DNA of 64,000 nucleotides from an uncultured Solirubrobacteraceae bacterium. GTDB taxonomy: Bacteria; Actinomycetota; Thermoleophilia; Solirubrobacterales; Solirubrobacteraceae. The DNA is taken from the NCBI GenBank assembly GCA_963734755.1, contig CAVTIF010000001.1:244885-308884 (forward strand), written 5' to 3'. Every line of letters starts with the position of its first letter. Position 1 is the stretch's first letter. A program made the position numbers and the translations under genes. Below are positions 4,335 through 47,821 of the stretch, piece by piece. The notes below the pieces were generated by a model. The model was given only the letters and a program-made list of their open reading frames with translations, made no database searches and was not told the origin of the DNA.

Positions 4335-4360
4335 TGATCCGTGAGTGGCCGCCTTCCGTA
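4335..4360 (+). promoter_or_regulatory. Putative ECF (SigK-like) promoter TGATCC-N15-CCGTA
   Basis: Same motif and spacing recur before the sigma gene (7234) and the ferritin-like gene at 47.6 kb. Confidence 0.6.
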
Positions 4361-4400
4361 TTCACAGAAAAGAACACGGATGAAGGCGGAGGTGTAGAAG

Positions 4401-5125
4401 ATGTCAAGTCCACCCAGTGGTGACACGGTTACCCAGGCGGCGGAGGGTGAGCACGTGCAGCCCCGACCGACCGGCCTGGTCGAGCGCCTCGTGCGCGACG
4501 ACGTCGACCGCAAGCGGTTCCTGAAGATGGCCGGCACGGCAGGCGCGGCGAGCTTCGGTGCGTTCGTGACGGCGGCGTGCGGGAGCAGCAGCAGTAGCAG
4601 CACCTCGAGCACAGCTACGACCGCGACAGCAGCGGGCAGCGCGAGCGCCGTGAAGACCGACATCGGAATCCTCAACTACGCGCTGACGCTCGAGTACCTG
4701 GAGACGTGAGTTCTACAAGAAGGTAATCGCGGCAGACCTGTTCATCGGCAAGGTCGGAGCACTGATCAAGAGCTTCGGCGTCACGGAGGCCGACGCACGT
4801 GGAAGCGCTGAAGGGTGCCGTGGAGAAGCTGGGCGGAACGCCGTCGCCCAACCCGAACGGCAAATTCCCGATCAACTCCGCGACGCAGGTCGCGGAGCTC
4901 GCGTACACCGTCGAGAACCTCGGCGCTGCAGCGTATCTCGGCCAGGCACCGATGATCCAGAGCCCGGACGTGCTGGCGACGGCGCTGGCGATTCACTCGG
5001 TCGAGGCGCGCCACGCAGCGACGCTGGGCACGCTGGTGAAGAAGTCGATCACACCGGATGGCGCGTTCGCCAAGCCGGCTGACATGTCAACGGTCCTGGC
5101 GGCGGTCAAGCCGTTCCTGTCCTGA
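4401..5125 (+). CDS. Tat-signal ferritin-like (Ferritin_2) protein, frameshifted in this assembly
   Basis: DRKRFLK signal, ILNYALTLEYLE, ENLGAAAYLG, HSVEARHAA; split across frames near 4707 and 4790. Confidence 0.8.
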
Positions 5126-5151
5126 GCGCAGACGAAAAGGAGCTGAAAGTA

Positions 5152-5813
5152 ATGTCGAATGACACACTCACCGACATCGCGGCGGCCGGGCCGGTGGACG
5201 CCGAGCTGGGCGCCGTCGAGGTAAAGGGCATGACTCGCTCGAGCTTCATCCTGCGCGGCGCGATCGCGGCGGGCTCGGTGTACGGGGTCTCCACTGTGGC
5301 GCCGTTCGTCTCGCAGGCACTAGCGGCGGGCGGCAGTGGCGATGTCGAAATTCTCAACTTCGCGCTCACGCTCGAGTACCTGGAGTCGGCGTTCTACAAC
5401 GAAAAGGGCAAGGACGTCGGGCTTGAGCGGCCAGGCGAAGTCATACGCCAAGCAGTTCGGCGAACAGGAGGCACGACCACGTCGAGGCGCTGACCTCGAC
5501 GATCAAACAGCTCGGCGGCACGCCCGTGACGAAGCCGACGTTCGTGTTCCCGGTGACGAACCAGAGCTCGTTCCTGGCGCTGGCGTCGGTGCTGGAGAAC
5601 ACTGGGGTGGGCGCATACAACGGCGCGGCGCCGTCGATCTGCGAAGCAAGCAGGTGCTGGCCGCTGCCGGCAGCATCGTGCAGATCGAGGCGCCGCCACG
5701 CTGCTGCGATCGACCTGTTGATCGGCAAGAGCCCGACGCCGAACGGTGGATTCGACGTACCGCTGACCAAGGCGCAGGTGCTCGCGAGGGTGACTCCGCT
5801 GATCAAGAAGTAG
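5152..5813 (+). CDS. Second Tat-signal ferritin-like protein, frameshifted
   Basis: TRSSFILR, ILNFALTLEYLESAFY, LENTGVGAYNGA; several indels between 5410 and 5700. Confidence 0.8.
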
Positions 5814-5828
5814 CCCGGGAGCGACCGG

Positions 5829-5852
5829 TGATCCGTCAGAACCGCAACCGTA
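5829..5852 (+). promoter_or_regulatory. Possible ECF promoter TGATCC-N13-CCGTA upstream of tatA
   Basis: Both boxes match the motif but the spacer is 2 nt short; it lies in the indel-rich segment. Confidence 0.4.
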
Positions 5853-5902
5853 GCAGGATAGCCCCAGCGGCATCCAACTCGACTTAGGAGGAACACGACA
5901 CC

Positions 5903-6190
5903 ATGGGACTCGACAATCCGATCCACATCGCCTTTCTGCTGATCCTGCTGCTGCTCGTGTTCGGCGCCAAGCGCCTGCCGGAGATGGGCAAATCGCTGGG
6001 CAGCGGCATGCGCGGCTTCAAGGACGCGATCAGCGGCGAGAGCACGCGAGCCCGCGCGCTCGGCCGACGCAGCGCAGCTCGGTGCCGTGGCCAGTGCAGC
6101 AGCCGCGCGGCGGTCCCGCACCGGTCGCGAGCCGTCGGTCGCCACCCGCTGCGCGCCGGCGCTCAACGGACGCCCAGACGCGGATGACGG
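5903..6190 (+). CDS. tatA: Twin-arginine translocase TatA (3' end uncertain, probable indels)
   Basis: LLVFGAKRLPEMGKSLGSGMRGFKDAISG. Confidence 0.88.
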
Positions 6191-6197
6191 AGAGATC

Positions 6198-7173
6198 ATG
6201 GCTGTGGCCGTAGGCAGCATCGGACACGAAGACCGGCTGAGCCTCGTCGATCACCTGCAGGAGCTGCGCGTGCGCCTGATCGTCTCGCCTGGCGGTGCTC
6301 GCGGTGGCGTTCGGCGTTGTGCATGTGGCAGAACCACGCGCTGCTGAACATCATCAACAGGCCGCTCGCGCACCAGACGCAGAAGCAGGTGCGCGCGGGC
6401 AACGGGCCGCTCGGCGCGACGTACACCGTCCAGCAGAGCGCGCGCACGGTCGCAACCCAGCTGCAGGTGGTGGTCGCAGGCGCTGCGAGCGTCCGGGCAG
6501 CGGCGTCTCGCCGGCGACGAAGGGCGTCGCTTGCGCCCGTGAGCCCACAGCTGCGCGGCGCGATCAGCAGCCTGTCGGCGGCCCCGCAGGGCAACAAGCC
6601 GGTGACGCTGGGGATCGGCGAGCCGTTCAGCGACGACGATCGGCGTCGCGTTGATCTTCGCGTTCATCCTCGCGCTGCCGGTGCTGCTGTATGAGCTCTA
6701 CGGCTTCCTGCTGCCGGCGTTCAGCCCCGAGCAGCAGCGGGTCGCGACGCCGCTGATGCTGGCGATCCCGTTCCTGTTCGTGATCGGCGTGCTGTTCGGC
6801 TACTTCGTCGTGCTGCCGGCGGCGGTGCGCTTCTTCCAGAACTTCAACAGCGGCCAGTTCAACGTGCTGGTGCAGGCGAGCCAGTACTACCACTTCGCGG
6901 CGGTCATCCTGCTGGCGATGGGGCTCGTGTTCCAGGTACCGGTGGCGATCCTCGCGGCGACGCGCGCGGGGATCGTCACGACCGACCCAGCTGCGCCACA
7001 ACCGCCGCTACGCGATCGTCGCGTGCGGCGCGGTCGCGGCGTTCCTGCCGGGCGACGCGATCACGCTGCTGCTGGAGACGGTCCCGCTGTACCTGCTGTT
7101 CGAGCTGAGCGTGCTGCTCGCCAGGGTGATCGACCGGCGCGAGAGGCGCCGTGCTGCGCTCGATGGCGGCTGA
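6198..7173 (+). CDS. tatC: Twin-arginine translocase TatC, frameshifted in this assembly
   Basis: LSLVDHLQELRVRL, EPF, LYELYGFLLPAF, LGLVFQVPV, ETVPLYLLFELS across several frames. Confidence 0.85.
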
Positions 7174-7233
7174 TCGCCCTGAGCGTTGGTTTAGCCGCGG
7201 CGCCGGTCGCGGGAGGAGGCGCGGTGATCGCGG

Positions 7234-7259
7234 TGATCCGGATGGGTCTCGGTGCCGTA
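7234..7259 (+). promoter_or_regulatory. Putative autoregulatory ECF promoter TGATCC-N15-CCGTA
   Basis: Ends 3 nt before the sigma ATG at 7263, suggesting a leaderless transcript. Confidence 0.6.
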
Positions 7260-7262
7260 ACA

Positions 7263-7883
7263 ATGAGCGAGATGTTCAAACCGCTGCGCTCTTCCAAGGA
7301 TCGCTCCGCTGCAGGCCTGCGGCGTGCTCGCGGACGAGGAGCTCATGCAGCTCGTCTACGGGGGCCAGGCCGCCGCGTTCGAGGTTATCTATGACCGTCA
7401 TGCGGACGCTGCGTTCTCGCTGTCGTACCGCATGTGTGGCCAGCGGGCACTGGCGGAGGATGTGGTTCAGGAGGCGTTCCTGTCGCTGTGGCGCAGCGGT
7501 GCCCACTATGACCGCGCGCGTGGCAGCGTGCGCACGTGGGTGCTGGGCGTCGTGCACAACCGCGCGATCGACGCGCTGCGGCGGCGCACGACGCGCGACC
7601 GCGGGCTGGTCGCGAAGAGGGCATCGAGGAGCGGCTGGAGGCGCCGGAGCGCACGGAGGTCGAGTTCGCCCGCCGCGACGAGGCACGAGAGGTCCGCGAC
7701 GCGCTCGAGCAGCTGCCGAACGAGCAGAGCCGCGTGATCGAGCTCGCGTACTTCGGCGGCCTGACGCACGTGCAGATCGCGTCGATGTTGGACACGCCGG
7801 TGGGCACGGTGAAGGGGCGGATGCGCCTTGGCCTGGCGAAGATGCGGATGACGCTGGGTGATCCGGCGGAGGTCGTGCGATGA
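7263..7883 (+). CDS. ECF sigma-70 factor, SigK-like (frameshifts near 7320 and 7612)
   Basis: AEDVVQEAFLSLWR, VHNRAID, LAYFGGLTHVQIA, GTVKGRMRLGL. Confidence 0.85.
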
Positions 7884-8626
7884 ACGCTGAAGAGCCTCCG
7901 ATCATCCCCGAGGGCTGCGGTGGGAACGCGGCGCCGTACGTGCTGGGAGCCCTGACGGAGGATGAGCACGGGGTGTTCGTGGCCCACATGGAGTCGTGCG
8001 CGGTGTGCCGTGAGGAGGTGGCTGCGCTGCAGCTGGTGACGGCGGCGCTGCCGGCGTCGGCGCCCCAGGTGCACGCTCCCTCCGAGCTGAAGCGGCGGGT
8101 GATGTCGAGCGTCCACGAGGATGTTCGCCGGCGCGAGGCGGCCGAGTCGGCGCGCTCAGGCGCCCGTTCCGCCGGCCCCGGGTGGCGTTCGGCAGGCCGC
8201 GGGTGGTTGAGATGGCGCCCGGCGCTGGCGGTGACGGCGGTGGCGGCGCTCGCGGCGGTGGTGATCGCGCTGGTGGCGATCGGGTCGTCCACGTCGGGCA
8301 CGGGCGGCGGCGGCCGCGTGATCGAGGCTCAGGTGATTCCGGAGCGCGCGAGTGCGTCGCTGGAGGTGAGCGGCGGCGGACGAGCGGAGCTGAAGATCGC
8401 GGGCATGCCGCAGTCGGCGCCGGGTCGTGTGTATGAGGTGTGGGTGAAACGAGCGGGCGGCGCGTTGCCGACGGACGCGCTGTTCACGGTGTCTTCGGGC
8501 GGCGCGGCGACGGTGGCTGTGCCGGGCGGCGTGGACGGCGTGAAAGAAGTGATGGTGACCTCGGAGCCGAAGGGCGGCAGCCGCGCTCCGACGACGCTGC
8601 CGCTGATCATCGCGCGCGTCAGCTGA
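7880..8626 (+). CDS. Anti-sigma factor, RskA-like
   Basis: ZAS-like HMESCAVC, a TM helix and C-terminal YEVW...VTSEPKGGSRAPTT; ATGA overlap with the sigma gene. Confidence 0.88.
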   Translation: MNAEEPPIIPEGCGGNAAPYVLGALTEDEHGVFVAHMESCAVCREEVAALQLVTAALPASAPQVHAPSELKRRVMSSVHEDVRRREAAESARSGARSAGPGWRSAGRGWLRWRPALAVTAVAALAAVVIALVAIGSSTSGTGGGGRVIEAQVIPERASASLEVSGGGRAELKIAGMPQSAPGRVYEVWVKRAGGALPTDALFTVSSGGAATVAVPGGVDGVKEVMVTSEPKGGSRAPTTLPLIIARVS

Positions 8627-8796
8627 GAGGGTCTGGCGCGCGACGGTTGGAGGCTTGATGTGGGTTGCGCCGGGCAGCAAGTGCGTGTGCGTGTGGGTGC
8701 GTGTGTGTTTGTGTTTTCGCACTGCGGTAGCAAATGTATATACGGCGTAGATACGATGGCTATCGCTGCGCGTAGCGACAGTCCTACCTACCCCCT

Positions 8797-8862
8797 GCGG
8801 TGAACGGGCGGTGAACGGGCGGTGAACGGGCGGTGAACGGGCGGTGAATGGGCGGTGAACCG
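8797..8862. repeat. Tandem repeat, 6 x 11 bp (GCGGTGAACGG)
   Basis: Read directly: 4 perfect copies and 2 with 1-2 mismatches; intergenic. Confidence 0.95.
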
Positions 8863-8948
8863 ACGATGAGGATGGGCTCCGACGGGGGGATCGCGTAGGG
8901 GGTGACTGTGGGAGCCTCCTCCGCTGACATCCTGATACGGTTAACCAG

Positions 8949-9338
8949 ATGGCTAACCATGTCCTCCCGGAGAGCACGGTCCTGGACCGTACGTTTGCGG
9001 CGTGCTCGCATCCGATCCGCCGTGGGATATTGGAACGGCTGACGGACGGCGAGCTGAGCGTGGCGGAGGCGACGGGGAACTTTGGCGTGTCGAAGCCGGC
9101 GATTAGCAGGCATCTGAAGGTGCTGGAGGAGGCGGGGGCGATCGTGCGGGTGATTGACGGTCGCACGCACAGGCTGCGGATCCAGGAGCGCCGGCTGCGG
9201 GAGGCGGCGCAGTGGATGAGCTCCCAGCGTGAGCTGTGGGAGCACAAGCTGGACACGGTGGAGGAGTACCTGCGCGAGCAGAGAGACAACGGGCGAGGCG
9301 AGCGAATGGACAACGGATCAGAGAGGGAGCGGAGATGA
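8949..9338 (+). CDS. ArsR/SmtB family regulator
   Basis: HPIRRGILERL, SKPAISRHLKVLEEAG. Confidence 0.9.
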   Translation: MANHVLPESTVLDRTFAACSHPIRRGILERLTDGELSVAEATGNFGVSKPAISRHLKVLEEAGAIVRVIDGRTHRLRIQERRLREAAQWMSSQRELWEHKLDTVEEYLREQRDNGRGERMDNGSERERR

Positions 9339-9802
9339 GCGCGACGGATTCGACGACGGTGCGGCTGGAGCGCACGTTTGACGCGCGACGGGAGGAGGTG
9401 TTTGACGCGTGGACGAACCCGGAGGTGCTGCGGCGCTGGTGGTCTGTGACGCCGTCGGGCAGGACGCCGATTGCGGAGGTGGACTTGCGCGTGGGCGGCT
9501 CGTACAGGCTGTCGATGGAGAACGTGGAGGCGGGGACGAGGCACACGGTGCGGGGCGAGTACCGCGAGGTGCGCCGGCCGGAGCGCTTGGTGTACAGCTG
9601 GTGCTGGGAGGATGAGGACGGGCGGACTGGCCATGTGAGCATGGTGACGGTGGAGTTCGTGGGCGAGGGCGAGCGCACGACGGTGGTGCTGGAGCACTCG
9701 GAGCTGGAATCGGAGGAGTCGGCGGAGCGCCACAGCCACGGCTGGGAGGCGTGCATGCGGATGCTGGAGGCGCGGATGTTCGCGCCGCTGGCGCAAGCTT
9801 GA
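9335..9802 (+). CDS. SRPBCC/AHSA1 domain protein
   Basis: VFDAWTNPEVLRRWW, DLRVGGSYR, PERLVYSW, HGW. Confidence 0.9.
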   Translation: MSATDSTTVRLERTFDARREEVFDAWTNPEVLRRWWSVTPSGRTPIAEVDLRVGGSYRLSMENVEAGTRHTVRGEYREVRRPERLVYSWCWEDEDGRTGHVSMVTVEFVGEGERTTVVLEHSELESEESAERHSHGWEACMRMLEARMFAPLAQA

Positions 9803-9858
9803 CAAGTCGGCGAGTGAGCGGCAGCAAAGTGACGGCAAAACAACCAAGGGAGATCAGA

Positions 9859-10173
9859 ATGGCGACGTACCTGTTTGCGTATAAGGGCGGCAGCATGGCG
9901 GAGACGGACGAGGAGCGTGAGGCGGTGATGGCAGCGTGGGGCAAGTGGTTCGGCGAGTTGGGCGCGGCGGTGGTCGACGGCGGCAACCCGTTTGGCCCGG
10001 CGGCGACGGTGAGCGCGGGCGGCAGCGTGAGCGATGGCGCGTCGTCGAGCCTGACGGGCTACTCGGTGCTGACGGCGGAGGACCTTGCGGCGGCGAGCAC
10101 GATGGCGAAGGGCTGCCCGGTGCTGGCGGCGGGTGGCAGCGTGGAGGTGTATGAGACGTTCCCGGTGATGTAG
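9859..10173 (+). CDS. YciI-like protein
   Basis: AWGKWFGELG...GNPFG...GYSVL...CPVL...SVEVYE. Confidence 0.75.
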   Translation: MATYLFAYKGGSMAETDEEREAVMAAWGKWFGELGAAVVDGGNPFGPAATVSAGGSVSDGASSSLTGYSVLTAEDLAAASTMAKGCPVLAAGGSVEVYETFPVM

Positions 10174-10316
10174 GAGGAGGGTCGGCTGGACGGTCGGGCA
10201 GGGCGTGCCGCCAGGGATTCTCGGGTCCTGGGGAACCGGCGGCGGCCGCCCGATCGGTCCATGTGCTGGCGGCGCGCTGCGCGTAAATCCGGGCGCACGC
10301 CTATCTGGTTGCGCGC

Positions 10317-10556
10317 CTATGTGGGTTGCGCGCGACTTGCGGCGGGTGCGCTGACGAGCAGCTCGTGCTCGCCGACGCGGACGGTGTCACGGTGGCGCAG
10401 CTGGCGCCCGCGCCGGGTCTCGGGTTGGCCGTTGACGGACACGGGCTGGGCGGCGAGCAGCGCCTTGACATCGCTGCCGCTGTCGACGATCCCGGCGAGC
10501 TTGAGCAGCTGTCCGAGGCGGATGGTCTGGCCGCGGATCGGGATCTCGCGAATCAT
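10317..10556 (-). CDS. S4-domain RNA-binding protein (YaaA-like)
   Basis: IRLGQLLKLAGIVDSGSDVK...VNGQPETRRGRQL. Confidence 0.88.
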   Translation of the reverse strand: MIREIPIRGQTIRLGQLLKLAGIVDSGSDVKALLAAQPVSVNGQPETRRGRQLRHRDTVRVGEHELLVSAPAASRAQPT

Positions 10557-10566
10557 GTGCGCGAAT

Positions 10567-12078
10567 CTAGCGCCCCGCCGCGTTGCTGAGCGCGGGCTTG
10601 GCTGCTGGCGACGGCTTGACTGCCGCGGTGCTCTCCCGCGAGGAGCGCCGCGCGCGCAGCCGGCTGGCGGCGGCGAGGTGGTCGACGATCGGCTTGGGGT
10701 AGCGGACACGGCGCAGCTGCTGTGGTCCGAGACGCCAGGGTTCGTGCACGCTGGCGCCGGCGATGTGCGCGAGCTCGGGCAGGTAGCGACGCACGTACTG
10801 ACCGTGGGGGTCGAAGCGGTGGGCTTGGCGCAGCGGGTTGAGCACGCGGTTGGGGCGAGTGTCGTTGCCGGTGCCGGCGACCCATTGCCAGTTGCCGACG
10901 TTGCAGGCGACGTCGGCGTCGAGCAGCAGCTGGGCGAAGTGCGCGGCACCGGCGCGCCAGTCGACGTACAGGATCTTGGTGAGGAAGGAGGCGACGATCA
11001 GTCGTGCACGGTTGTGCATGAACCCCTCTTGCTGGAGCTGGCGCATGCCGGCGTCGACGATCGGATAGCCGGTTAGCCCTTCCTGCCAGGCGTGAAGCGC
11101 TTGCGGATCGTGCTGCCAGCGATCCCCACGCGGGCGGTAGTCAGCGTGCGGGAGGTCGGGCCGCGCGGCGAGCACCTGATGGTGGAAGTCGCGCCAGCAG
11201 AGCTGCCGGGCGAAGCTGTCGGCGTGGGAGTCGCTGCCTTCGTGTGGGTCGCGGCGGGCGTGGGCGTCGCTGCCTTTGTGCGGGTCGCTGTGGGCGTGGG
11301 CGTCGCTGCGGGCGCGGTTGTCGGCCCGCGCGAGCAGGGTGGCGGGCGAGAGGCAGCCGAAGTGCAGGTAGGGGCTTAGACGCGAGGTCCCGTCGTGCGC
11401 GAGCTGATCCCGTCGCAGGTCGTAGCTGGACAGGCCGCGGCTGAGCCAGTGCGTGAGCAACTTGCGTCCGGCTTCCTCTCCGCCGGGCGCGAGGTAGGGA
11501 GCGGGAGGCCCACTGGTGAGGCTGACGAGCGAAGGGAGCCGCGTTGAGCGAACCGCGGACGGCATTGAGATACGGCGCGGGGCGGGGAGCGGGGGGCGGG
11601 GCGGCTGCTGGCGCCAGACCCGCCAGTAGGGCGTGAACACGCGGTAGTGATCGCCGCCGGTGGGCGTCAGCTCGCCGGGCGTGACGACGGTGATGCCGTG
11701 AAACGCGCGCAGCTCGATCCGTGCTCGCCGGCAGGCGACCGCAAGACGCTGTTCTCGCTGGCGGGCGTAGGGTGTGCAGTCGGCACTGATGTAGATCGCG
11801 GAGAGCTGCGACTGGTCGGCGAGCCGCATGGCCTCCTCGACTACGTCTCCGTGCCGCAGCACGAGCCGCGCGCCGCGTTGGCGCAGGGAGCTGTTGAGGT
11901 CGCGCAGGCTGTCGAGCAGGAAGGCGACGCGGTTGGGGGCGCCGCAGCTACGGGCGAGCAGCTGACGGTCGAGCACGAACGCCGGCACGACACTGTCGGC
12001 CTCGCGCACGGCGGCGGCGAGCGCGGGCTGGTCGCGCACGCGCAGGTCGCGCGTGAACAGCACGAGTGCGCCGCTCAT
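10567..12078 (-). CDS. phr: Deoxyribodipyrimidine photolyase (class I cryptochrome/photolyase family)
   Basis: FTRDLRVRDQPAL, TSRLSPYLHFG, LCWRDF, GYPIVDAGMRQL, FMHNRARLIVASFL, NWQWVAGTG. Confidence 0.92.
   Translation of the reverse strand: MSGALVLFTRDLRVRDQPALAAAVREADSVVPAFVLDRQLLARSCGAPNRVAFLLDSLRDLNSSLRQRGARLVLRHGDVVEEAMRLADQSQLSAIYISADCTPYARQREQRLAVACRRARIELRAFHGITVVTPGELTPTGGDHYRVFTPYWRVWRQQPPRPPLPAPRRISMPSAVRSTRLPSLVSLTSGPPAPYLAPGGEEAGRKLLTHWLSRGLSSYDLRRDQLAHDGTSRLSPYLHFGCLSPATLLARADNRARSDAHAHSDPHKGSDAHARRDPHEGSDSHADSFARQLCWRDFHHQVLAARPDLPHADYRPRGDRWQHDPQALHAWQEGLTGYPIVDAGMRQLQQEGFMHNRARLIVASFLTKILYVDWRAGAAHFAQLLLDADVACNVGNWQWVAGTGNDTRPNRVLNPLRQAHRFDPHGQYVRRYLPELAHIAGASVHEPWRLGPQQLRRVRYPKPIVDHLAAASRLRARRSSRESTAAVKPSPAAKPALSNAAGR
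11222..11309. repeat. About 2.5 x 36-bp repeat inside the photolyase, giving a His/Asp-rich insertion
   Basis: GCGTGGG(A/C)GTCGCTGCC unit; protein DAHAHSDPHKGSDAHARRDPHEGSDSH. Confidence 0.8.
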
Positions 12079-12087
12079 CGCGGAGCG

Positions 12088-12255
12088 CGTTCGATCGGCC
12101 GCTCGTTCACCCGTTCGATCGGCCGCTGGTTCACCCGTTCGATCGGCCGCTGGTTCACCCGTTCGATCGGCCGCTGGTTCACCCGTTCGATCGGCCGCTG
12201 GTTCACCCGTTCGATCGGCCGCTGGTTCACCCGTTCGATCGGCCGCTGGTTCACC
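12088..12255. repeat. Tandem repeat, 7 x 24 bp (CGTTCGATCGGCCGCTGGTTCACC), plus a degenerate partial copy
   Basis: Read directly; fills the epimerase-photolyase junction. Confidence 0.97.
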
Positions 12256-13170: not shown

Positions 13171-13193
13171 GTTAGCTGCAGTGGCGCGGCGGT

Positions 13194-20692: not shown

Positions 20693-21512
20693 CCAGGCAC
20701 CCCCACCGGAGCAGATCGTCGGGCCGACCTCAGCGCCGGACGACGTGCTGCGCGTGGAACACATCTCTAAGCGCTTCGGCCCGGTGACGGCGTTGCGCGA
20801 CGTCAACTTGCACCTGAAAAAGGGCGAGGTGCTCGGTCTGCTCGGTGACAACGGCGCGGGCAAGTCGACGCTGATCAAGATCATCAGCGGCTTTCAGAAG
20901 CAGGACGCCGGGACGATGCTGCTGCACGGGCAGCCGTATGAACCGAAAGGCGTGGACGATGCCCGGGCGAAAGGCATCGACACCGTCTACCAGGACCTGG
21001 CGCTGATCGACGAACTGTCGGTTTACCACAACCTGTTCCTGCGCCGCGAGAAGGTGCACCGGCCGCTGCCGTTCCTGGCCAATCGCGAGATGAAGCTGCA
21101 GGCGCGCAAGGCGTTGGATGAGATCGGGATCAACATCCCGCGCATCGACGTGGCCGTGGCCCGCCTATCTGGCGGGCAGCGCCAGGCGATCGCGGTCGCG
21201 CGGACGGTGAACTCAGAGTCGGACATCATCCTGCTGGACGAGCCGCTGGCGGCGATGGGCGCGAAGGAGGGGTCGATGATCCTCGACCTGGTCGCGCGCC
21301 TGAAGCAGGAGGGGCGGGTCTCGATCATCATGATCCTGCACAACTATGTGCACGTGCTGGAGGCGTGCGACCGGGTGAGCATGATCCAGGACGGCGCGAT
21401 CGCGCTGGACAAGCCGACGGCGGAGACGTCGGTCGAGGAGCTGACGGACATCGTCGTCAACGAGTACCGCAGGGCGCGTATGGAAACCCACGAAACGCCG
21501 GCGTCGGGCTGA
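20685..21512 (+). CDS. Sugar ABC transporter ATP-binding protein
   Basis: Walker A GDNGAGKST, LSGGQRQ, ILLDEP. Confidence 0.93.
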   Translation: MADQAPPPEQIVGPTSAPDDVLRVEHISKRFGPVTALRDVNLHLKKGEVLGLLGDNGAGKSTLIKIISGFQKQDAGTMLLHGQPYEPKGVDDARAKGIDTVYQDLALIDELSVYHNLFLRREKVHRPLPFLANREMKLQARKALDEIGINIPRIDVAVARLSGGQRQAIAVARTVNSESDIILLDEPLAAMGAKEGSMILDLVARLKQEGRVSIIMILHNYVHVLEACDRVSMIQDGAIALDKPTAETSVEELTDIVVNEYRRARMETHETPASG

Positions 21513-38032: not shown

Positions 38033-38039
38033 CCGCTGA

Positions 38040-39922: not shown

Positions 39923-40082
39923 CGTGCTCGCTGCCTTTCTGTATTTTCGATTATGAGGGGTTGCGGTCGGTTTGCCGGCGCGCGTCGCCAGGGTTGCGTC
40001 GGGCGGTGGCGGACGTCGGCGGTCACACCCGCCGTGCGGCCTCCGTCGACCGCGATGACCGGCTCGTCGCTACGCTTGACGG

Positions 40083-40589
40083 ATGGACCAGGCCGAGCTG
40101 CGCGCTGTCCAGGCACCGATCAAGGAGCGCTACAAGGGCGAGCCGCAGGCGGCGCGGATAACGCTGTCGGCGACGGGCAGTCTGGGCGAGGGCGTGTCGT
40201 GCTCGGTGCGGACGGGCCGGGCGATCGCGCAGGCCGGACTGCACCCGGCGTCAGGTGGCGACGGCTCGGAGCTGTGCTCTGGCGACATGCTGCTCGAGGC
40301 GCTGGTCGCGTGTGCCGGAGTGACGCTGCGGGCTGTCGCGACGTCGCTGGGGATCGCGGTCAGCTCTGGCGAGGTGTGCGCCGAGGGCGACCTCGACTTT
40401 CGCGGGACGCTGGGAGTCGACCGCGATGCGCGGGTCGGGTTCTCGGCGATCCGCCTGTCGTTCGACCTCGACTCGGATGCCGATGAGGAGCAGTTGGCGA
40501 CGCTCGAGCGCCTGACGGAGCGCTACTGCGTCGTCTACCAGACGCTCGCGAGCGCGCCGGCACTGACCACGACGATCGACCGTGCGTAG
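40083..40589 (+). CDS. OsmC family protein
   Basis: CSGDMLLEALVACAGVT, RYCVVYQTL. Confidence 0.9.
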   Translation: MDQAELRAVQAPIKERYKGEPQAARITLSATGSLGEGVSCSVRTGRAIAQAGLHPASGGDGSELCSGDMLLEALVACAGVTLRAVATSLGIAVSSGEVCAEGDLDFRGTLGVDRDARVGFSAIRLSFDLDSDADEEQLATLERLTERYCVVYQTLASAPALTTTIDRA

Positions 40590-40612
40590 GCGCGGGCGGC
40601 TGGCGGCGCGCC

Positions 40613-40641
40613 TTGACTAGCTCCAGTGCCTGGGCTAAGTT
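40613..40641 (+). promoter_or_regulatory. Housekeeping sigma-70-type promoter for the aryl-ligase operon
   Basis: TTGACT-N17-TAAGTT; overlapped by a long imperfect inverted repeat at 40619-40672. Confidence 0.6.
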
Positions 40642-40850
40642 TTGTGTAAGAACGGAAAGCCCCGGCTGGAGCTGTGCTCCTGCGGGGACATGGGACATAG
40701 GCCACGGACGGAATATGTGCAACGTGATCACCCGCCCAACCATGACGGACGATCCCCAAGCCGGCTCCGCGTCGAGGATCGAGAGCTGGCTGTACGCCAT
40801 GGGTTCCCACGCGACAGAGGCTTGCGCCGGATTGCGCACGAGGTAGAGAG

Positions 40851-41579
40851 ATGATCGTGGCCGACCGCCTGACGGAGCTCCATTTCAACGCGCAGCACGA
40901 GGCTACGGCCGAGCTCGAGCGCGTGGAGGTCGCGCGTCTGGACCCATTCCTTCGGGGCTTGCTGTTCACCGATGGAACGGTGTCTCGCGTGCTGGAGGCG
41001 CAGACGCTGACGCCGGTCACGCTGGAGGCGGTCGAGCAGGCGCGGACCACAGCGCCCGCGCGCGCCGCCCGCTACCTGGACGTGGGTGAGGGCGAGGAGT
41101 GCGTCAGGCGACGCGTGGTGATGACGATCGCCGGCCCTTCCCCGTCGGTGTGGGCGGAGTCCTACGTCCTCCCAAGCAGGCTGCCCGCGGATTTTGTCGG
41201 CGTGCTCGACAGCAGCTCACATGGCATCGGCGGCTCACTGCGGCAGCTCAAGCTGGAGAGCTGGCGCGAGCTGCTGTGGTTCGGGCTCGGTGCCCCGCCG
41301 CCATGGTCGGAGGATCAGGCGACGGCGATCGCCCTGACACGCGTCTACCGGATCATCACCAAGCGCTTGCCGGCGCTGCTGATCTCTGAGGCGTTCGCGG
41401 TCGAGCTGCATCTCGGCGAGTATCGGCTGGCGGGTGCGAGCAGGCCGCTCGCCGACCCGGCGGGCGCGAGCAGGCCGCTCGCCGACCCGGCGGGTGCGAC
41501 CACGCAGCCACGCTTGCGGACGAGGATCATCGTCGGCGATCGCAGTGCCCGCGGCGGCGCGGCATCGGCTTCGGACTGA
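40851..41579 (+). CDS. Chorismate pyruvate-lyase family protein (Rv2949c/UbiC-like fold)
   Basis: LLFTDGTVSRVLEA, RRVVM...VWAESYV...RLP...IG..L...KLESWRELL; 30-bp duplication near the C-terminus (41430-41489). Confidence 0.75.
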   Translation: MIVADRLTELHFNAQHEATAELERVEVARLDPFLRGLLFTDGTVSRVLEAQTLTPVTLEAVEQARTTAPARAARYLDVGEGEECVRRRVVMTIAGPSPSVWAESYVLPSRLPADFVGVLDSSSHGIGGSLRQLKLESWRELLWFGLGAPPPWSEDQATAIALTRVYRIITKRLPALLISEAFAVELHLGEYRLAGASRPLADPAGASRPLADPAGATTQPRLRTRIIVGDRSARGGAASASD

Positions 41580-41580
41580 G

Positions 41581-44427
41581 ATGAGCGTTGCCGAGCGCCG
41601 AAACGCCAGCCAGCTAGTCGACCGAAACCTAGAAGCCGGGCGTGGCGCCAACATCGCCTACCTCACGCGCGGCGAGTCGCTGAGCTATGAGGGGCTGTAC
41701 CGCCGGGTCAACCGCATGGGCCACCTGCTGCAGGGCCTTGGGCTGCGGCGCGAGCAGCGGGTGCTGCTGGTGCTCGACAACACGATCGTGTTTCCGGTCG
41801 CGTTCCTCGGTGCGATGCGGATCGGGGCGGTGCCGGTGCCGGTCAGCGTGCGCGAGACGGACGAGAACTTCAGGCATTTCATCGAGGACTCGGGCGCGCA
41901 GCTGATCGTGTGCGACGCCGCGATGCTGGCGAAACTGCGTGCCGCCCTCCGCGGCCTCGACGTGCGCTATCTCGCTCGCGGCGCAGACGATGGAGCGATC
42001 GAGCTGGAAGCCGCGTTGACGGCCCAGGAGGATGAGCTGCAGGCCGTTGCGACGAACGCCGGCGACATGGCGTTCTGGCTGTACACGTCCGGCTCGACCG
42101 GCAAGCCGAAGGGCGTCGTCCATCTGCACCACACGATCGACGTGACCGGCGAGGCGTTCGGGCGTCAGGTGCTCGGGATGCGCGAGGGCGACCGCGTGTT
42201 CTCGACGACGAAGCTGTATCACGCGTACGGGCTCGGCAACTGCCTCTCCTACACGCTGTACGTGGGCGCGACGGCGGTCCTGCTCGACGGCTCCCCGACG
42301 CCCGAGCGGCTGCTAGCGACGTTGCGCGAGCTGCGCCCGACGATGTACTTCTCGGTGCCCGCGCTGTACCGGCAGCTGGTGGCCGACCGGGATGCTGACG
42401 GGGCGTTCGAGTCCGTGCGCCTGTGTGTGTCGGCCGCCGAGCCGCTGCCGGTACGGACCTACGAGCAGTGGCGCGAGCGCTTCGGGCTGGAGATTGTGGA
42501 CGGGATCGGGTGCACGGAGATGGTCGTGTCCTTCTGCTCTAACCGGCCCGGCGAGGTCGTCCCGGGAACGACCGGTCGCGCGCTGCCGGGCTATGACATA
42601 CGGCTGACCGACGAGCAGGGCGAGGAGCTGGCGGGCGTGGCGGAGGGCACGATGGAGGTACGCGGAGGCTCCCGTGCCGCGTGCTACTGGAATCAGCCCG
42701 AGCGTACGAGGCGCAACATGCGCGGCGAGTGGTTCGTGACCGGCGACCGTTTCTTGCGTCGCGCGGACGGCACGTACGCCTACCTCGGTCGCGCTGATGA
42801 CATGTTCAAGGTCGGCGGCCTGTGGGTGTCTCCGGTGGACATGGAGCAGGTGCTGCTGGAACACCCTGCGGTGGCGGGCGTGGCGGTCGTCGGCGTGAGC
42901 ATCGACGACTACAGCCGCCTGGCGGCGTTCGTCGAATGCGCGGATGAGGTGAGCGGCGATGACGAGCTGCGGCACGCGTTGCGCTCGTGGTGCGTGGAGC
43001 GTATGCACGACCACGAATACCCGCATCTGATCCGCTTCGTTGACGAGCTGCCGCGAACCCACAACGGCAAGCCCCAGCGCTTCAAGCTGCGGGCGATGAT
43101 CGAAGCCGAGCAGACCTCGAGTGAGCATGCGTCCGGCTCGCTGGCGGACACGCTGGCCGGCCTGCCGCGGGCTGATCGCGACGCGGCTGTGATGGACGTC
43201 GTGCTCGCGCAGATGGCCGCGGTCCTCGGCGAGAGCCCGTTCGTCGCGGCCGACGCCGGGCGCGCGTTCGAGGAGCTCGGATTCGACTCGTTGAGCGCGG
43301 TCGAGCTGCGCAACCGCTTGGGCAACGCTGCGGATCTCGCGCTGCCCTCGACGCTGATCTTCGACTACCCGACGCCGCAGGCCGTCGCCGAACTGCTGCG
43401 CCGGCGGTTGGAAGGGGTCGAGGAGGATTCACCCGAGTGGGGCCGCGCGAACGGACGAGCCGTGGGGGCCGCCGGCGGTGGGAGTGCCGAGCAGGCCTCG
43501 TACACGGTCCGGGCGCTCGACGCGGTTGCGCGGCGCCCGACGCCACCGCGGATGCCCGCGGCTCCGCTGCGGGTGCGCGTCAAGACCTCGCCGTTGCTGC
43601 ACGGCGTTGTGCCGCCGCGCTTGGCGGTGAGCAGGGCCGCGCGCCGTGGGGATGAGATCTGGGAGCACAGCGTCGAAGCGCGCGAGCAGGCGCTGGCCGC
43701 GATGGAGACGATCGTCGCTGGCACCTCCCGCGCAGATGAGCTGGACGCGCTCGCGCGCCGGCACGTGATCGAGGTAGGGATCGGCAGGGCGCTGTTCTGG
43801 CAGCGGCCGTGGTCGGCGAAAGTCGACGCGGTGTCAGCCGCGCGCATACGCCACGCGCTGTCGAGGAACCGCGGGGTGCTGCTCAGCGCCTGCCATGTGG
43901 GCGCGTACTATCGCCTGCAGTGCGCTCCCCCGTTCGAACAGCAGGTCACGTACATCGTCCCCGGCCCGTGGTACTTCGAGCCGCCGAGCGCTGACTACTG
44001 GGGGCGGCGCCTGGCGCGCTGGCACAAAGGGGTGAAGAGCCACCCGGTCCCCGCGAAAGGGTCCTTCCGGATCATCCAGGCGCTGCTCGAGCGGGGTGAG
44101 CCGGTGTTCCTGTTCTTCGATATGCCCGGGCCGCGCGAGACGCGTTTCCTGGGCAAGCGGGCGACGCTCGCGGAAGGCAGCGCGCAGCTGGCCGTGCGCG
44201 CCGACGCACTCGTGCTTCCGCTGCGCGCGCGACGTGTCGGGCACGAGGTGTGGGTGGACGTGGAGGCGTCGATCGACCCGCGCGAGCTCGGCGGCGTGGA
44301 CGATCTCCACGATACGCTCGCCGCGCTGCACGAGCGTTGGATCCTCGAGGATCCGGCCGCGATGGAGGATCCGCGCAACATCGGCTGGGAGCACGGCGCC
44401 ACGGCCGAGGCCTGGGTCAGCCCCTGA
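41581..44427 (+). CDS. Three-domain fusion: benzoate-CoA-ligase-type adenylation domain, PKS-type ACP, LPLAT/HtrB-like acyltransferase
   Basis: FWLYTSGSTGKPKG, YHAYGLGN, DGIGCTE, DDMFKVGG; ELGFDSLSAVELRNRL...IFDYPTP; LLSACHVG, FFDMPG, FLG...LA..ADALVLP. Confidence 0.85.
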   Translation: MSVAERRNASQLVDRNLEAGRGANIAYLTRGESLSYEGLYRRVNRMGHLLQGLGLRREQRVLLVLDNTIVFPVAFLGAMRIGAVPVPVSVRETDENFRHFIEDSGAQLIVCDAAMLAKLRAALRGLDVRYLARGADDGAIELEAALTAQEDELQAVATNAGDMAFWLYTSGSTGKPKGVVHLHHTIDVTGEAFGRQVLGMREGDRVFSTTKLYHAYGLGNCLSYTLYVGATAVLLDGSPTPERLLATLRELRPTMYFSVPALYRQLVADRDADGAFESVRLCVSAAEPLPVRTYEQWRERFGLEIVDGIGCTEMVVSFCSNRPGEVVPGTTGRALPGYDIRLTDEQGEELAGVAEGTMEVRGGSRAACYWNQPERTRRNMRGEWFVTGDRFLRRADGTYAYLGRADDMFKVGGLWVSPVDMEQVLLEHPAVAGVAVVGVSIDDYSRLAAFVECADEVSGDDELRHALRSWCVERMHDHEYPHLIRFVDELPRTHNGKPQRFKLRAMIEAEQTSSEHASGSLADTLAGLPRADRDAAVMDVVLAQMAAVLGESPFVAADAGRAFEELGFDSLSAVELRNRLGNAADLALPSTLIFDYPTPQAVAELLRRRLEGVEEDSPEWGRANGRAVGAAGGGSAEQASYTVRALDAVARRPTPPRMPAAPLRVRVKTSPLLHGVVPPRLAVSRAARRGDEIWEHSVEAREQALAAMETIVAGTSRADELDALARRHVIEVGIGRALFWQRPWSAKVDAVSAARIRHALSRNRGVLLSACHVGAYYRLQCAPPFEQQVTYIVPGPWYFEPPSADYWGRRLARWHKGVKSHPVPAKGSFRIIQALLERGEPVFLFFDMPGPRETRFLGKRATLAEGSAQLAVRADALVLPLRARRVGHEVWVDVEASIDPRELGGVDDLHDTLAALHERWILEDPAAMEDPRNIGWEHGATAEAWVSP

Positions 44428-44465
44428 CGCACTCGGAGCTCGAGCATCACCGCTCGGGAGTCAGC

Positions 44466-45745
44466 TCAGAAGTCTGGCGTGGCGGGCAGCCCGACGTAGT
44501 TCTCGGCGAGCGTGCGCGCGGCGGCGTCCGAGCGTGCGAGGTAGTCCAGTCGCGCGAGCTGCAGCCGCCGCTGGAAGACGCCGCCGCCGAGGTCGTGCAG
44601 CAGCTGGGTCATGTAGTTGGAGAAGTCCTGCGCCTGCCACACGCGGCGCAGCGCGGTCTCGGAGTACGCATCGAGCGCTGAGCTCGAGCCGCCGGTGTGC
44701 CAGTCGGCGATCGCGCCGGCCAGCAGGCGGGCGTCGTTGACCGCCAGGTTGAGGCCCTTGGCGCCGGTGGGGGGGACGATGTGCGCGGCGTCGCCGAGCA
44801 GGAACAGCCGCCCGTGCTGCAGCGGCTCGCACACGAAGCTGCGCATCGGCGTTATGCCCTTCTCGATCAGCGGGCCTTCGTTCACGCGCCAGCCGTCACT
44901 GGCGAGCCGCACTTGCAGCTCCGCCCAGATCCGCTCGTCGGGCCAATCCTCGATCCGCTCGTCGGCCGGCACCTGCAGGTACAGGCGGCTGATGCTCGGC
45001 GAGCGCATCGAGTACAGCGCGAAGCCGCGCTCGTGCCACGCGTAGATCAGCTCGTCGGTGGCGGGCGCCGCTTCTGCGAGGATGCCGAGCCAGCTGAACG
45101 GATACACGTACTCGTGCTCGCTGAGCACGCCGGCCGGGATCGACGGGCGGCAGACGCCGTGGAAGCCGTCGCAGCCGGCGATCAGGTCGCACTCGAGCTC
45201 CTGCGGTGCGCCGTCGTGTGTGTATGTGATGCGAGGCCGCTCGCCGTCGAGTCCGTGGACCGCGATGTCGCGCCCGTGGACCGCGATGTCGAGCTCGTTG
45301 ACCGCGATGTCGCGCCCGTGGACCGCGATGTCGAGCTCGTTGACCGCGCCGTCGAGCCCGTGGACGGCGACGTCGAGACCTCGAACTGCAGCGCACCACC
45401 GTTGCGCAGGCGGGCTGCGATCAGGTCCTTGACGACCTCCTGCTGGCCGTAGATCGTGATCCCCCGGCCGGTCAGCTCGGTCATGTCGATGTGCTGGGTG
45501 CTCCCGGGGTGGCGCAGGTATATGCCGCGGTGCTCGAGGCCCTCGCGCGCAAGCCGCTCGCCGACGCGGAGCTCGTGCAGCAGCGCGACGGTGTTGTGCT
45601 CGAGCAGTCCGGCGCGCACGCGCTGCTCGACGTATGCGCGCGAGCGACTCTCGATGACCACCGACTGGATGCCCGAGCGTTCGAGCATCAGCGCGAGCGT
45701 GAGGCCGGCCGGTCCGGCGCCGACGATGCCGACCTGCGTCCTCAA
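44466..45745 (-). CDS. pobA: 4-hydroxybenzoate 3-monooxygenase; 1-nt frameshift near 45378 and a 35-aa repeat insertion
   Basis: RTQVGIVGAGPAGL, RVRAGLLE, YGQQEVVKDL, IAGCDGFHGVCR, GDAAHIVPPTGAKGLNLA, AENYVGLP. Confidence 0.9.
45253..45378. repeat. 6 x 21-bp tandem repeat inside pobA
   Basis: Alternating units encoding VHGRDIA / VNELDIA. Confidence 0.92.
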
Positions 45746-45835
45746 GGGCCGAGCATATAACACGCCACACGGTGCTTTGGAGGGCGTATCGTTCGGCGAT
45801 CACCGAACAGTCTTCGAGCGGGCAGGAGGAGAACA

Positions 45836-46723
45836 GTGAGCGCAACTGAGTCAGAGCTCTCGACGAGCGCCAACGACGAGGCGATCCGAGCGTGGGATGG
45901 GCCGCTGTATGACCGTTTCGTCCGCTTCCGCGAGATCCTGACCACTGGGCTCGGCGCCCACGGTGAGGAGGCGCTGCGCATGTATCCGCCGATAGCGGGG
46001 CAGCGGGTGCTCGACATCGGCTGCGGCTTCGGCGACACGACCCAGCGGATCGCCGCACTGGTCGGTGCGGATGGCGAGGCGGTCGGCGTGGACGCGGCGC
46101 CACGCTTCATCGAGGACGCGATCCGCGAGGCGGACGAGCAGCACGTGGCGAACGCCCGCTTCCTGGTCGCCGACCCGCAGGAGTCGCTACTGGGGGAGGG
46201 TGGCTTCGATCTCGCGTTCTCGCGCTTCGGCACGATGTTCTTCGCCAACCCGGTCGCCGCGATGCGCAACGTGCGCCACGCGCTGGTGCCCGGCGGGCAG
46301 CTGTTGATGGTCGTGTGGCGCCGGCGGATGGACAACGAGTGGATGTACCGCGCGCAGACGATCGTCGAGGGGATCGTGGAGCGCCCGGAGGAGTACGACG
46401 AGCCGACCTGCGGGCCGGGGCCGTTCTCGATGGCCGACGCGGACACCACGAGCGACGTCCTGCTGGGCGCTGGCTTCGCCGATGTGACGCTGCGCCGCTG
46501 CGATCTGCCGATCGTGATCGGCCGCGACCTCGACGAAGCGATCGAGCTGGTGATGGCGCTCGGCCCGGCCGGTGAGATCCTGCGCCTGGCCGGCGACCGG
46601 GCGGCCCACCTGCACGGTCGCGTCGAGGCGGCCCTGCGCGAGGGCCTCGGTGAACTTGCGGTCGACGGGGAGCTGCGAGCCCGGGCGTCCACGTGGATCG
46701 TGTCGGCGAGCGTGCCGAGCTAG
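45836..46723 (+). CDS. Class I SAM methyltransferase
   Basis: VLDIGCGFG, FSRFGTMFF.NP, PGPFSMAD. Confidence 0.9.
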   Translation: MSATESELSTSANDEAIRAWDGPLYDRFVRFREILTTGLGAHGEEALRMYPPIAGQRVLDIGCGFGDTTQRIAALVGADGEAVGVDAAPRFIEDAIREADEQHVANARFLVADPQESLLGEGGFDLAFSRFGTMFFANPVAAMRNVRHALVPGGQLLMVVWRRRMDNEWMYRAQTIVEGIVERPEEYDEPTCGPGPFSMADADTTSDVLLGAGFADVTLRRCDLPIVIGRDLDEAIELVMALGPAGEILRLAGDRAAHLHGRVEAALREGLGELAVDGELRARASTWIVSASVPS

Positions 46724-46801
46724 CGACGGCTGCGGTGATCGGCGGCACGTGCGCTCGCCGCCGATCACCGCATTTATACCTGCCGTCGGTCTCGTCTGAG
46801 C

Positions 46802-47647
46802 TCAGCCTTTCAGCGAGTGAAATTCACCGAGCGGGTTCGCCAGCATCGGTGTGAACGGTTCGAACTTGTACGGCTTGGTCGTGTCGAACCCGGCTTTTTC
46901 GGCGGCTGACTTTTCGGCGAACGGCAGCAGCGCCTGGACCGCTTGGCCGATGTTCTTCAGCAGCAGCGTGCGCTCGTAGCCGTTGTTGTTCGGCGGGTCG
47001 ACCGACTCGGCCGTCTTCTGAATGCCGGTGATCTGCTCGATTGGGCCACCGTCGCTGCCGGCGACGCCCGGCCCGACGACCCGCGCGAGCGTGCGGTGGT
47101 CGGACTCGATGCCCATGATCCTGGCGGCGGTGACGCGCAGGTCGGCGGTGCTGAAGTCGCGTACGCCGATGAGATACGCGGCGATGAACGCGTCCTCGAG
47201 CGTCACGAGGATGTTCAGCGTCGTCTGTGCGTCGGCGAACATCTTCGGCGGGTAGTAGAACATCGTGAACGGTGTTGGCTTCTTGGTCAGGCTTTGCTCG
47301 AGCAGGTAGTGGGACATCTCCTCCTGCACAGCCGCCTTCAGGTAACCCTGGTCGTCGGCCTCGAGGTTCTTGAAGAACGGCGCGGTGTTGATGATGTTGG
47401 TGTACGTCGTGACCGCCAGCGCCTCGGCGATCTGGGCTGCTTTGAGGATCTGCAGGTCGCCGTGCGTCAGCCCCTTCGGCCTGCCCTTGGCGAACGCCGC
47501 GGCGGGACCGAGCACCCCAAGGCCGGTGGCGCCCGCGCCGGCGACGGCGGCTCCCTTGAGGAACCCCTTGCGCGTCGTCGGTGCGCTCCAGCTGTCGCCG
47601 GTCGCGGTCGCTGCTGCAACTTCGGATCGGTCGTGCGTGCTGTCCAT
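46802..47647 (-). CDS. Tat-signal ferritin-like protein (third in the window)
   Basis: TRKGFLKGA, EALAVTTY, QEEMSH, LEDAFIAAY, IESDH. Confidence 0.8.
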   Translation of the reverse strand: MDSTHDRSEVAAATATGDSWSAPTTRKGFLKGAAVAGAGATGLGVLGPAAAFAKGRPKGLTHGDLQILKAAQIAEALAVTTYTNIINTAPFFKNLEADDQGYLKAAVQEEMSHYLLEQSLTKKPTPFTMFYYPPKMFADAQTTLNILVTLEDAFIAAYLIGVRDFSTADLRVTAARIMGIESDHRTLARVVGPGVAGSDGGPIEQITGIQKTAESVDPPNNNGYERTLLLKNIGQAVQALLPFAEKSAAEKAGFDTTKPYKFEPFTPMLANPLGEFHSLKG

Positions 47648-47795
47648 CTCTCTGGCTCCTTTGATCTCAACTGCGGCGTGCCGTGATCACGCCGGTGCGG
47701 GCACCGGGCGCGATGCCTGGGGACGACGGCACACACCGCCCCGAGACTCCTGCCTGTGCGGCCGCCCCATCAACCACGGCCGCGTGTATCTGTGA

Positions 47796-47821
47796 TTCGC
47801 GCGCGGGCCCAAAACGGATCA
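47796..47821 (-). promoter_or_regulatory. Putative ECF promoter TGATCC-N15-GCGAA
   Basis: Same layout as at 4335, including the downstream TCACAG; faces the ferritin-like gene. Confidence 0.6.

Follow-up and report, generated by a model that had tools for sequence, protein, structure and literature searches.

A predicted SigK-like ECF sigma factor regulon of Ferritin_2-family proteins and a second TatA/TatC pair in the Solirubrobacteraceae

Does a single sigma factor govern a dispersed set of genes for exported ferritin-like proteins, together with a translocase that could export them? The question is raised by a 64,000-nucleotide stretch of DNA from an uncultured Solirubrobacteraceae bacterium (GenBank assembly GCA_963734755.1, contig CAVTIF010000001.1, positions 244,885 to 308,884), referred to here in its whole length as the window. 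It contains genes for a SigK-like extracytoplasmic function (ECF) sigma factor and an RskA-type anti-sigma factor, a tatA–tatC pair related to the twin-arginine translocation (Tat) system, and three ferritin-like genes, the third of which lies 40 kb from the sigma locus on the opposite strand. From a promoter-like motif at four positions, the initial annotation of this DNA had proposed a regulon in which the sigma factor controls its own gene, secreted di-iron ferritin-like proteins and their own TatA and TatC. Comparative genomics agrees with an autoregulated SigK-like ECF sigma factor that shares its promoter type with tatA/tatC and with ferritin-like genes whose products carry Tat-like signals, and we consider it very probable that this regulon is real and conserved in the lineage.

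Promoter sites in the window, the genome and its relatives

The four sites were all recovered and are designated P1 to P4 (Table 1). They had been described as TGATCC-N15-CCGTA and its variants; the sites stand, and the spelling is corrected here to TGATCC-N16-CGTA, the working form used throughout, with CGAA as a variant of the −10 box. The combination of TGATCC, a spacer of 16 nucleotides (nt) and CGTA, positioned 5′ of the sigma factor's own gene, is that of ECF11/18/19-type promoters. Searching the window with the relaxed form TGATCC-N13-16-SCGWA gave five matches where 0.44 were expected, and none of 100 shuffles reached five. The TCACAG that follows the −10 box at both P1 and P4, and had been taken as a shared feature, is not kept in relatives. 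No sigma-70-type promoter was predicted within 4200–9000.

Two kinds of match in the window were set aside. The fifth match to the relaxed form, at 49355–49379, lies within a methyltransferase gene, carries an N15 spacer with a T immediately following TGATCC, and is probably due to chance. Matches with one mismatch, among them those at 21331, 27104 and 33335, number 6 in the window; the expectation was 2.4, a total of 6 was reached by 4 of 100 shuffles, and no excess over expectation was read from them.

Across the 3.43-Mb genome, the sequence TGATCC-N15-CCGTA occurs only twice, both times at the sigma locus, and the R/W form, TGATCCR-N15-CGWA, gives eight matches. When 85.5% of the genome is masked as coding, P1, P3 and P4 are the only N16 matches that fall outside the mask. 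Both transcription units that hold the genome's three Ferritin_2 genes carry the motif, and so does the sigma gene. The enrichment over background anticipated by the initial annotation is absent from the raw count and present in the placement of the sites and the identity of the genes that follow them; it is an enrichment of location and downstream genes, not of number of matches.

A further intergenic site, TGATCCG-N15-CGTA at C1:1336084-1336109 (minus strand), lies outside the window, 5′ of a gene for a group-2 (SigB/HrdB-like) sigma factor. It is situated about 65 nt 5′ of a consensus sigma-70 promoter, TTGACA-N17-TATAAT, and is kept in 3–4 of 17 orthologous loci (L052). Since few of these loci keep the motif and a sigma-70 promoter lies just downstream, the group-2 sigma gene is only a weak candidate target. 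Also outside the window, at C1:958262-958288, an intergenic TGATCCG-N16-CGAA, with a 17-nt spacer, lies 17 nt 5′ of an Rrf2-family regulator-like open reading frame (ORF; start VHVTAKADYAVRAVVELA).

Conservation was assessed in 40 relatives, in which loci were picked by protein homology to the anti-sigma factor, to ferritin-like gene 3 or to the Ferritin_2 family, and never by the motif. The motif proved to be conserved in orthologous loci, at the sigma operon, at tat and at the ferritin-like genes alike. It lies 5′ of the sigma operon in all 18 relatives that could be assessed: directly 5′ of the sigma gene as TGATCC-N16/17-CGTA in 13, 5′ of tatA–sigma–rskA or ferritin–tatA–sigma–rskA in two, and as TGATCT-N16-CGTA 5′ of tatA–sigma–rskA in the remaining three. 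Promoters of tatA/tatC with an N16 spacer were found in G001, G006, G009, G011 and G022 and in four named Solirubrobacteraceae metagenome-assembled genomes (MAGs); in the latter the layout is promoter, ferritin genes, promoter, tatA–tatC, promoter, sigma–rskA. The motif also marks ferritin-gene promoters in G002, G012 and G020. Sites equivalent to P1 are present at L032, L043 and L040–L042, with degenerate forms at L022 and L044, and TGATCC-N16-CG[TA]A precedes ferritin-like gene 3 in five of five orthologues despite differing neighbour genes.

The association extends beyond conserved gene order. Among the loci centred on Ferritin_2 genes, 26 of 30 carry the motif, with the gene order shuffled and with some clusters unlinked to the sigma gene, on other contigs. 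Altogether, 420 kb of relatives' loci contain 44 unique sites, where 1.3 would be expected at the background rate of this genome. Of the 27 genomes with the anti-sigma factor, 17 have Ferritin_2 genes; of the 13 in which it is missing or matches weakly, 3 do (Fisher p = 0.04). A second TatC occurs in 10 of the 20 genomes with Ferritin_2 genes and in 2 of the 20 without them (p = 0.014).

Elsewhere in the order, in other families, two TGATCC-N16-CGTA sites stand back to back between the sigma gene and a divergent gene for a secreted protein (L038 4370-4492; L039 9143-9220). This protein is DUF4331-like by reading of its sequence (SSHREAPL...), and there is no ferritin-like neighbour. The arrangement therefore points to the same type of sigma factor with a different cargo according to lineage.

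Sigma factor, cargo and translocase

The sigma factor has regions 2 and 4 only (Sigma70_r2, 68.5 bits; Sigma70_r4_2, 53.4 bits), as is characteristic of ECF (group 4) sigma factors, and its intact orthologue in G006 scores 100.6 bits against TIGR02937 (cut-off 42.9). Among solved structures the best match is Mycobacterium tuberculosis SigK, 4NQW (E = 6.6e-27), and the next best is Rhodobacter RpoE, 2Q1Z (E = 7e-20). The pairing of a SigK-like sigma factor with an RskA-type partner, as first annotated, is borne out by this best structural match and by the RskA C-terminal domain of the anti-sigma factor; Pfam and NCBIfam likewise agree with the gene identities assigned initially. The NCBIfam SigK model NF007228 (cut-off 226 bits) was reached neither by the intact orthologue (146.2 bits) nor by the fragments encoded in the window (68 and 69 bits). 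Moreover, the redox-active cysteine pair of SigK, C150/C200 in the 4NQW chain and C133/C183 in M. tuberculosis numbering, has no counterpart, the two positions aligning to Ala and Thr; the window sequence has these same residues. A cysteine pair of this type occurs in 94% of ECF18 sigma factors and in 56% of those of ECF19 (PMC7509140). The redox or metal stress that the initial annotation proposed as the stimulus is not supported here. Because the score falls below the SigK cut-off and the redox cysteines are missing, the sigma factor is best described, as far as its sequence tells, as SigK-like and not as a SigK orthologue.

P3 had been noted to end 3 nt before an ATG taken as the sigma start. 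That ATG, at 7263, is present, but it is unlikely to be the true start: the start that orthologues share is the next ATG in the same frame, at 7272 (MF(N/K)PLR, for example MFNPLR), 12 nt after CGTA. In all relatives compared, the sigma start codon lies 10–12 nt after CGTA, and because the conserved start is so close to the −10 box, the sigma mRNA is predicted to be leaderless or nearly so.

The rskA gene lies directly 3′ of the sigma gene and overlaps it at 7880–7883. As in the ECF18 and ECF19 groups, therefore, an RskA-type anti-sigma gene is found immediately downstream. Its product matches RskA_C (PF10099) with 42.7 bits (cut-off 29.4) and the anti-sigma model NF052375 with 104.6 bits (cut-off 100); a search of the PDB with the anti-sigma sequence gave no match. 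The N-terminus contains C-x23-H-x3-C-x2-C, with a ZAS-like HxxxCxxC (C13...H-MES-C-AV-C), and scores 19.5 bits against zf-HC2, for which the cut-off is 22.2.

The three ferritin-like proteins match PF13668 (Ferritin_2) with 75.6, 38.2 and 40.4 bits (cut-off 24.7), and theirs are the only three Ferritin_2 genes in the genome, all of them within the window. The predicted ligands of the dinuclear site, E75, E110, H113, E151, E181 and H184, are invariant in these proteins and their relatives, and a profile constructed from them matches the tardigrade protein RvFeMP-1 at E = 1.9e-19. The PF13668 family, which includes Deinococcus DRB0118 and plant PCC13-62, was shown in 2024 to have dinuclear-metal phosphatases, and not iron-storage proteins, among its members; proteins of the FeMP type carry signals for secretion, and desiccation or ultraviolet (UV) light induces them (PMC11616004). 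By homology, the cargo is thus predicted to resemble the dinuclear-metal FeMP desiccation-type phosphatases and not an iron-storage ferritin. The di-iron label of the initial annotation is not established, because the sole characterised members of the family are dinuclear-metal phosphatases (PMC11616004).

In the product of gene 1 (window 4500–4580) and its orthologues (L041, L042, L043 and L044), the RKRFLK motif is followed by a lipobox-like AAC/GSS and then by a Ser/Thr-rich linker, which suggests a lipid-anchored form. The products of genes 2 and 3 have AxA-type cleavage sites.

The genome has two TatC genes, that of the locus and the housekeeping copy on contig C2. The signal motifs of the cargo (RKRFLK, TRSSFILR and TRKGFLK) have only one Arg and the Phe in common. 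They depart from the twin-arginine consensus (S/T-R-R-x-F-L-K), and the NCBIfam Tat-signal models gave no match to the cargo; among the orthologues whose signals were compared, only that in G004 has RR. Of the earlier description of the cargo as Tat-exported with its own TatA/TatC, the tatA/tatC pair with the shared promoter type stands and the canonical twin-arginine signals do not. We infer Tat export of the cargo from the Tat-like signal motifs and the genetic linkage to tatA/tatC. The HLxELR and PExxR motifs, which contain the signal-binding glutamates of TatC, are kept in the paralogue when inspected by eye, and no alteration of recognition is obvious from them. One speculation, which we think unlikely to hold, is that the TatA/TatC paralogue under ECF control forms an export pathway induced by stress and has co-evolved with single-arginine (R-K/S/L-x-F-L-K) FeMP-type dinuclear-metal proteins. 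If it did hold, Solirubrobacterales and related soil bacteria would place desiccation-type enzymes at the envelope by means of a Tat variant whose signal recognition is relaxed or altered.

Taken together, these features suggest the following circuit. Some envelope or redox cue would inactivate the membrane-bound RskA-type anti-sigma factor and free the sigma factor, which would then direct RNA polymerase to TGATCC-N16-CG(T/A)A promoters. Transcription of sigma–rskA from P3 would provide positive autoregulation by way of a (near-)leaderless mRNA, while P1 would serve ferritin-like genes 1 and 2 and P4 the unlinked ferritin-like gene 3. In relatives, tatA–tatC would be transcribed by the sigma factor from the equivalent of P2; here, provided that the sequence is correct, P2 probably has little or no activity, and transcription of tatA–tatC would come from P1 by read-through. 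The circuit would thus yield three exported proteins of the Ferritin_2/FeMP family and a second TatA/TatC translocase.

Table 1. Coordinates of the predicted promoters, genes and terminator-like elements in the window
Feature	Position	Strand	Remarks
Terminator-like hairpin with T-run	4293-4315	+	After GNAT gene (3658-4263); a new transcription unit begins beyond it
P1	4335-4360	+	TGATCCGTGAGTGGCCGCCTTCCGTA; exact TGATCC-N16-CGTA, 40 nt 5′ of ferritin-like gene 1
Ferritin-like gene 1 (Ferritin_2)	4401-5125	+	DRKRFLK signal motif, then lipobox-like AAC/GSS; frameshifts at ~4708 and ~4792
Ferritin-like gene 2 (Ferritin_2)	5152-5813	+	TRSSFILRG signal motif; frameshifted in assembly
P2	5829-5852	+	TGATCCGTCAGAACCGCAACCGTA; TGATCC-N14-CGTA, 5′ of tatA
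tatA paralogue	5903-6187	+	PF02416, 54.2 bits (cut-off 21); TIGR01411
tatC paralogue	6198-7175	+	PF00902, 93.9 bits (cut-off 25.1); at least 6 frame-breaking indels relative to G006 orthologue (~6285, ~6313, ~6480, ~6520, ~6635 and ~6986)
P3	7234-7259	+	TGATCCGGATGGGTCTCGGTGCCGTA; exact TGATCC-N16-CGTA, predicted autoregulatory ECF promoter of the sigma gene
SigK-like ECF sigma gene	7272-7883	+	Frameshifts at ~7323 and ~7611 in assembly
RskA-type anti-sigma gene (rskA)	7880-8626	+	Intact; one transmembrane helix, RskA_C domain
Terminator-like GT-rich hairpin	8681-8715	+	After rskA; imperfect repeat GTGCGTGTGCGTGTGGGTGCGTGTGTGTTTGTGTTT
Ferritin-like gene 3 (Ferritin_2)	46802-47647	-	281 aa, intact; TTRKGFLKG signal motif; ligands E/ExxH/E/ExxH
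P4	47821-47796	-	TGATCCGTTTTGGGCCCGCGCGCGAA; TGATCC-N16-CGAA, 148 nt 5′ of ferritin-like gene 3

Two neighbouring regions deserve mention. P4 lies in a divergent intergenic region common to ferritin-like gene 3 and a gene for a Crp/Fnr-family regulator (47861–48559, plus strand; cNMP_binding and HTH_Crp_2 domains), whose start codon is 40 nt from the P4 site. Beyond the sigma locus, an ArsR-family ORF (8949–9338) and an AHSA1/SRPBCC ORF (9236–9802) share about 100 nt, read in different frames, which could reflect a further frameshift or a miscalled start.

Alternative explanations and the state of the locus

We infer that the sigma factor encoded at 7272–7883 reads the motif. The motif might instead be the promoter of some other sigma factor, since ECF11, ECF18 and ECF19 sigma factors have very similar promoter preferences (PMC5507510, PMC7509140) and the genome holds at least five further ECF sigma genes. 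These are, however, no more than 34% identical to the sigma factor of the locus, which is the only SigK-like one in the genome; the motif is directly 5′ of this sigma factor's operon in every relative examined, and the presence of Ferritin_2 genes tracks that of the anti-sigma factor. We therefore regard a different reader of the motif as improbable. Less credible still is the idea that the sites are chance matches or transcription-factor binding sites and not promoters. It draws on the genome-wide scan, where the 3-nt periodicity of the counts indicates that many matches arise from codon usage, but it has to contend with the 44 sites found against 1.3 expected in independently chosen loci. 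Furthermore, the spacer is constant at 16 (rarely 17), the two boxes are asymmetric and form no palindrome, and the sites always point towards the gene, at a constant 10–12 nt from the start codon where that gene encodes the sigma factor. We consider this explanation very improbable.

A number of observations nevertheless weigh against the regulon as drawn above. Genome-wide, N16 matches are no more numerous than matches with other spacers, and the counts show the periodicity of codons. The −10 box of P4 is CGAA instead of CGTA, and its distance from the start codon is 148 nt. The spacer of P2, which had been given as 13 nt, is indeed short; counted to CGTA it is 14 nt, 2 nt below the N16 of all orthologous tatA promoters, and ECF sigma factors are in general intolerant of a 14-nt spacer. 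The cargo signals are mostly R-K, R-S or R-L, with the second arginine mostly missing. About half of the Ferritin_2-bearing relatives lack a second TatC, so that a dedicated translocase is not obligatory. Finally, the module may be non-functional in this organism, because at least ten frameshifts break the sigma gene, tatC, possibly tatA and both linked ferritin-like genes.

This last point requires closer consideration, as the regulon could be real in the lineage and yet dead here, the sigma gene, tatC and two cargo genes being pseudogenes and the promoters relics. Comparison with intact orthologues in G006 reveals at least ten frame-breaking indels of 1–2 nt between 4401 and 7883, affecting ferritin-like genes 1 and 2, tatC, the sigma gene and perhaps tatA. 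The flanking GNAT gene, rskA and ferritin-like gene 3 are intact; in coding-phase switches the locus ranks among the highest 2% of the genome, and P2 is short of two spacer nucleotides. The cassette is also variably present in the genus. In G013 (L035 10494-11111, set beside window 3658-7259), the sigma promoter and gene come immediately after the GNAT gene; the ferritin–ferritin–tatA–tatC cassette thus represents an insertion/deletion polymorphism in the genus. On the other hand, fragments of the broken genes still show 68–94% protein identity to their orthologues, P1 and P3 retain the perfect consensus, and no in-frame stops or large deletions were seen in the broken genes. Nearly all of the indels are single-base insertions outside homopolymers, often in a GACG/CGAC context, a pattern that resembles consensus error in long-read MAGs, and the close relatives are MFD long-read MAGs; the G006 orthologue of ferritin-like gene 2 seems to be broken too. 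The indels may represent a local consensus error of a long-read MAG, or they may represent genuine decay. Overall, we regard a regulon that has died in this organism as possible but doubtful.

Comparison with known systems

The switch itself is an ordinary autoregulated ECF sigma/anti-sigma pair with a small regulon and a published promoter type. The initial annotation had compared the motif with an M. tuberculosis SigK consensus of roughly CCATCC-N14-15-CCGAA; the closest published consensus is that of the ECF11 RpoE/ChrR type. TGATCC-N16-CGTA is the consensus obtained by chromatin immunoprecipitation sequencing (ChIP-seq) and reporter assays for PSPTO_1043, the RpoE/ChrR-type ECF11 sigma factor of Pseudomonas syringae (PMC5507510), and target promoters of Shewanella oneidensis RpoE2, with mapped transcription starts, have the same sequence (PMC4336711). 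The likeness to the RpoE/ChrR systems thus includes an identical promoter consensus, defined there by ChIP-seq, reporter fusions and primer extension (PMC5507510, PMC4336711). It also includes autoregulation, with Rhodobacter sphaeroides RpoE as the second-best solved relative of the sigma factor and, in the Shewanella RpoE2 regulon, an exported stress enzyme, a periplasmic glutathione peroxidase. The anti-sigma factors differ, ChrR being a soluble ZAS-cupin protein whereas that of the window is of the membrane RskA type, and none of the photolyase, cfa and amine-oxidase genes of the RpoE/ChrR core regulon lies behind the motif in this genome.

M. tuberculosis SigK–RskA (ECF19, or ECF18 in some papers) provides the closest structure for the sigma factor, together with the RskA C-terminal domain and the overlap of stop and start codons. 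It too has a small autoregulated regulon of exported proteins, consisting there of mpt70/mpt83 and the sigK locus, and SigK binding sites have been reported to be conserved across Actinobacteria (PMC7509140). The sigma factor studied here differs in scoring below the SigK cut-off and in having Ala and Thr in place of the C133/C183 pair; its anti-sigma partner differs from M. tuberculosis RskA in the ZAS-like HxxxCxxC motif, and the targets are Ferritin_2 genes and tatA/tatC instead of those for the fasciclin-type MPT70/83.

With RvFeMP-1, DRB0118 and PCC13-62, the cargo shares PF13668 membership, the invariant ligand set and the profile match, and on these grounds belongs to the Ferritin_2/FeMP family. 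It differs in its signals, which are Tat-like instead of Sec-type, and PMC11616004 gives no regulator for the bacterial members.

Nothing relevant was found in the literature searched on a link of ECF sigma factors or RskA with ferritin-like proteins, Tat or desiccation, and a target set composed of FeMP-type Ferritin_2 proteins and a Tat paralogue appears not to have been described previously. The Ferritin_2/FeMP proteins form a widespread stress-associated family whose first biochemical activity was reported in 2024 and whose regulation in bacteria was not found in the literature searched. The locus connects them with a specific sigma/anti-sigma pair whose promoter can be recognised in sequence, which provides a starting point for finding the inducing condition and all the targets in uncultured soil actinobacteria. 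Two further features found here in nature are a cargo that shares its regulation with its own Tat translocase and Tat-like signals with a single arginine.

A parallel for the former is the phoD–tatAd–tatCd system of Bacillus subtilis, in which a stress regulon couples expression of one exported phosphoesterase to that of a dedicated TatA/TatC pair, a second Tat system being present elsewhere in that genome. Control there is by the PhoPR two-component system and not by an ECF sigma factor, the cargo fold is unrelated, and the signal is a canonical twin-arginine sequence.

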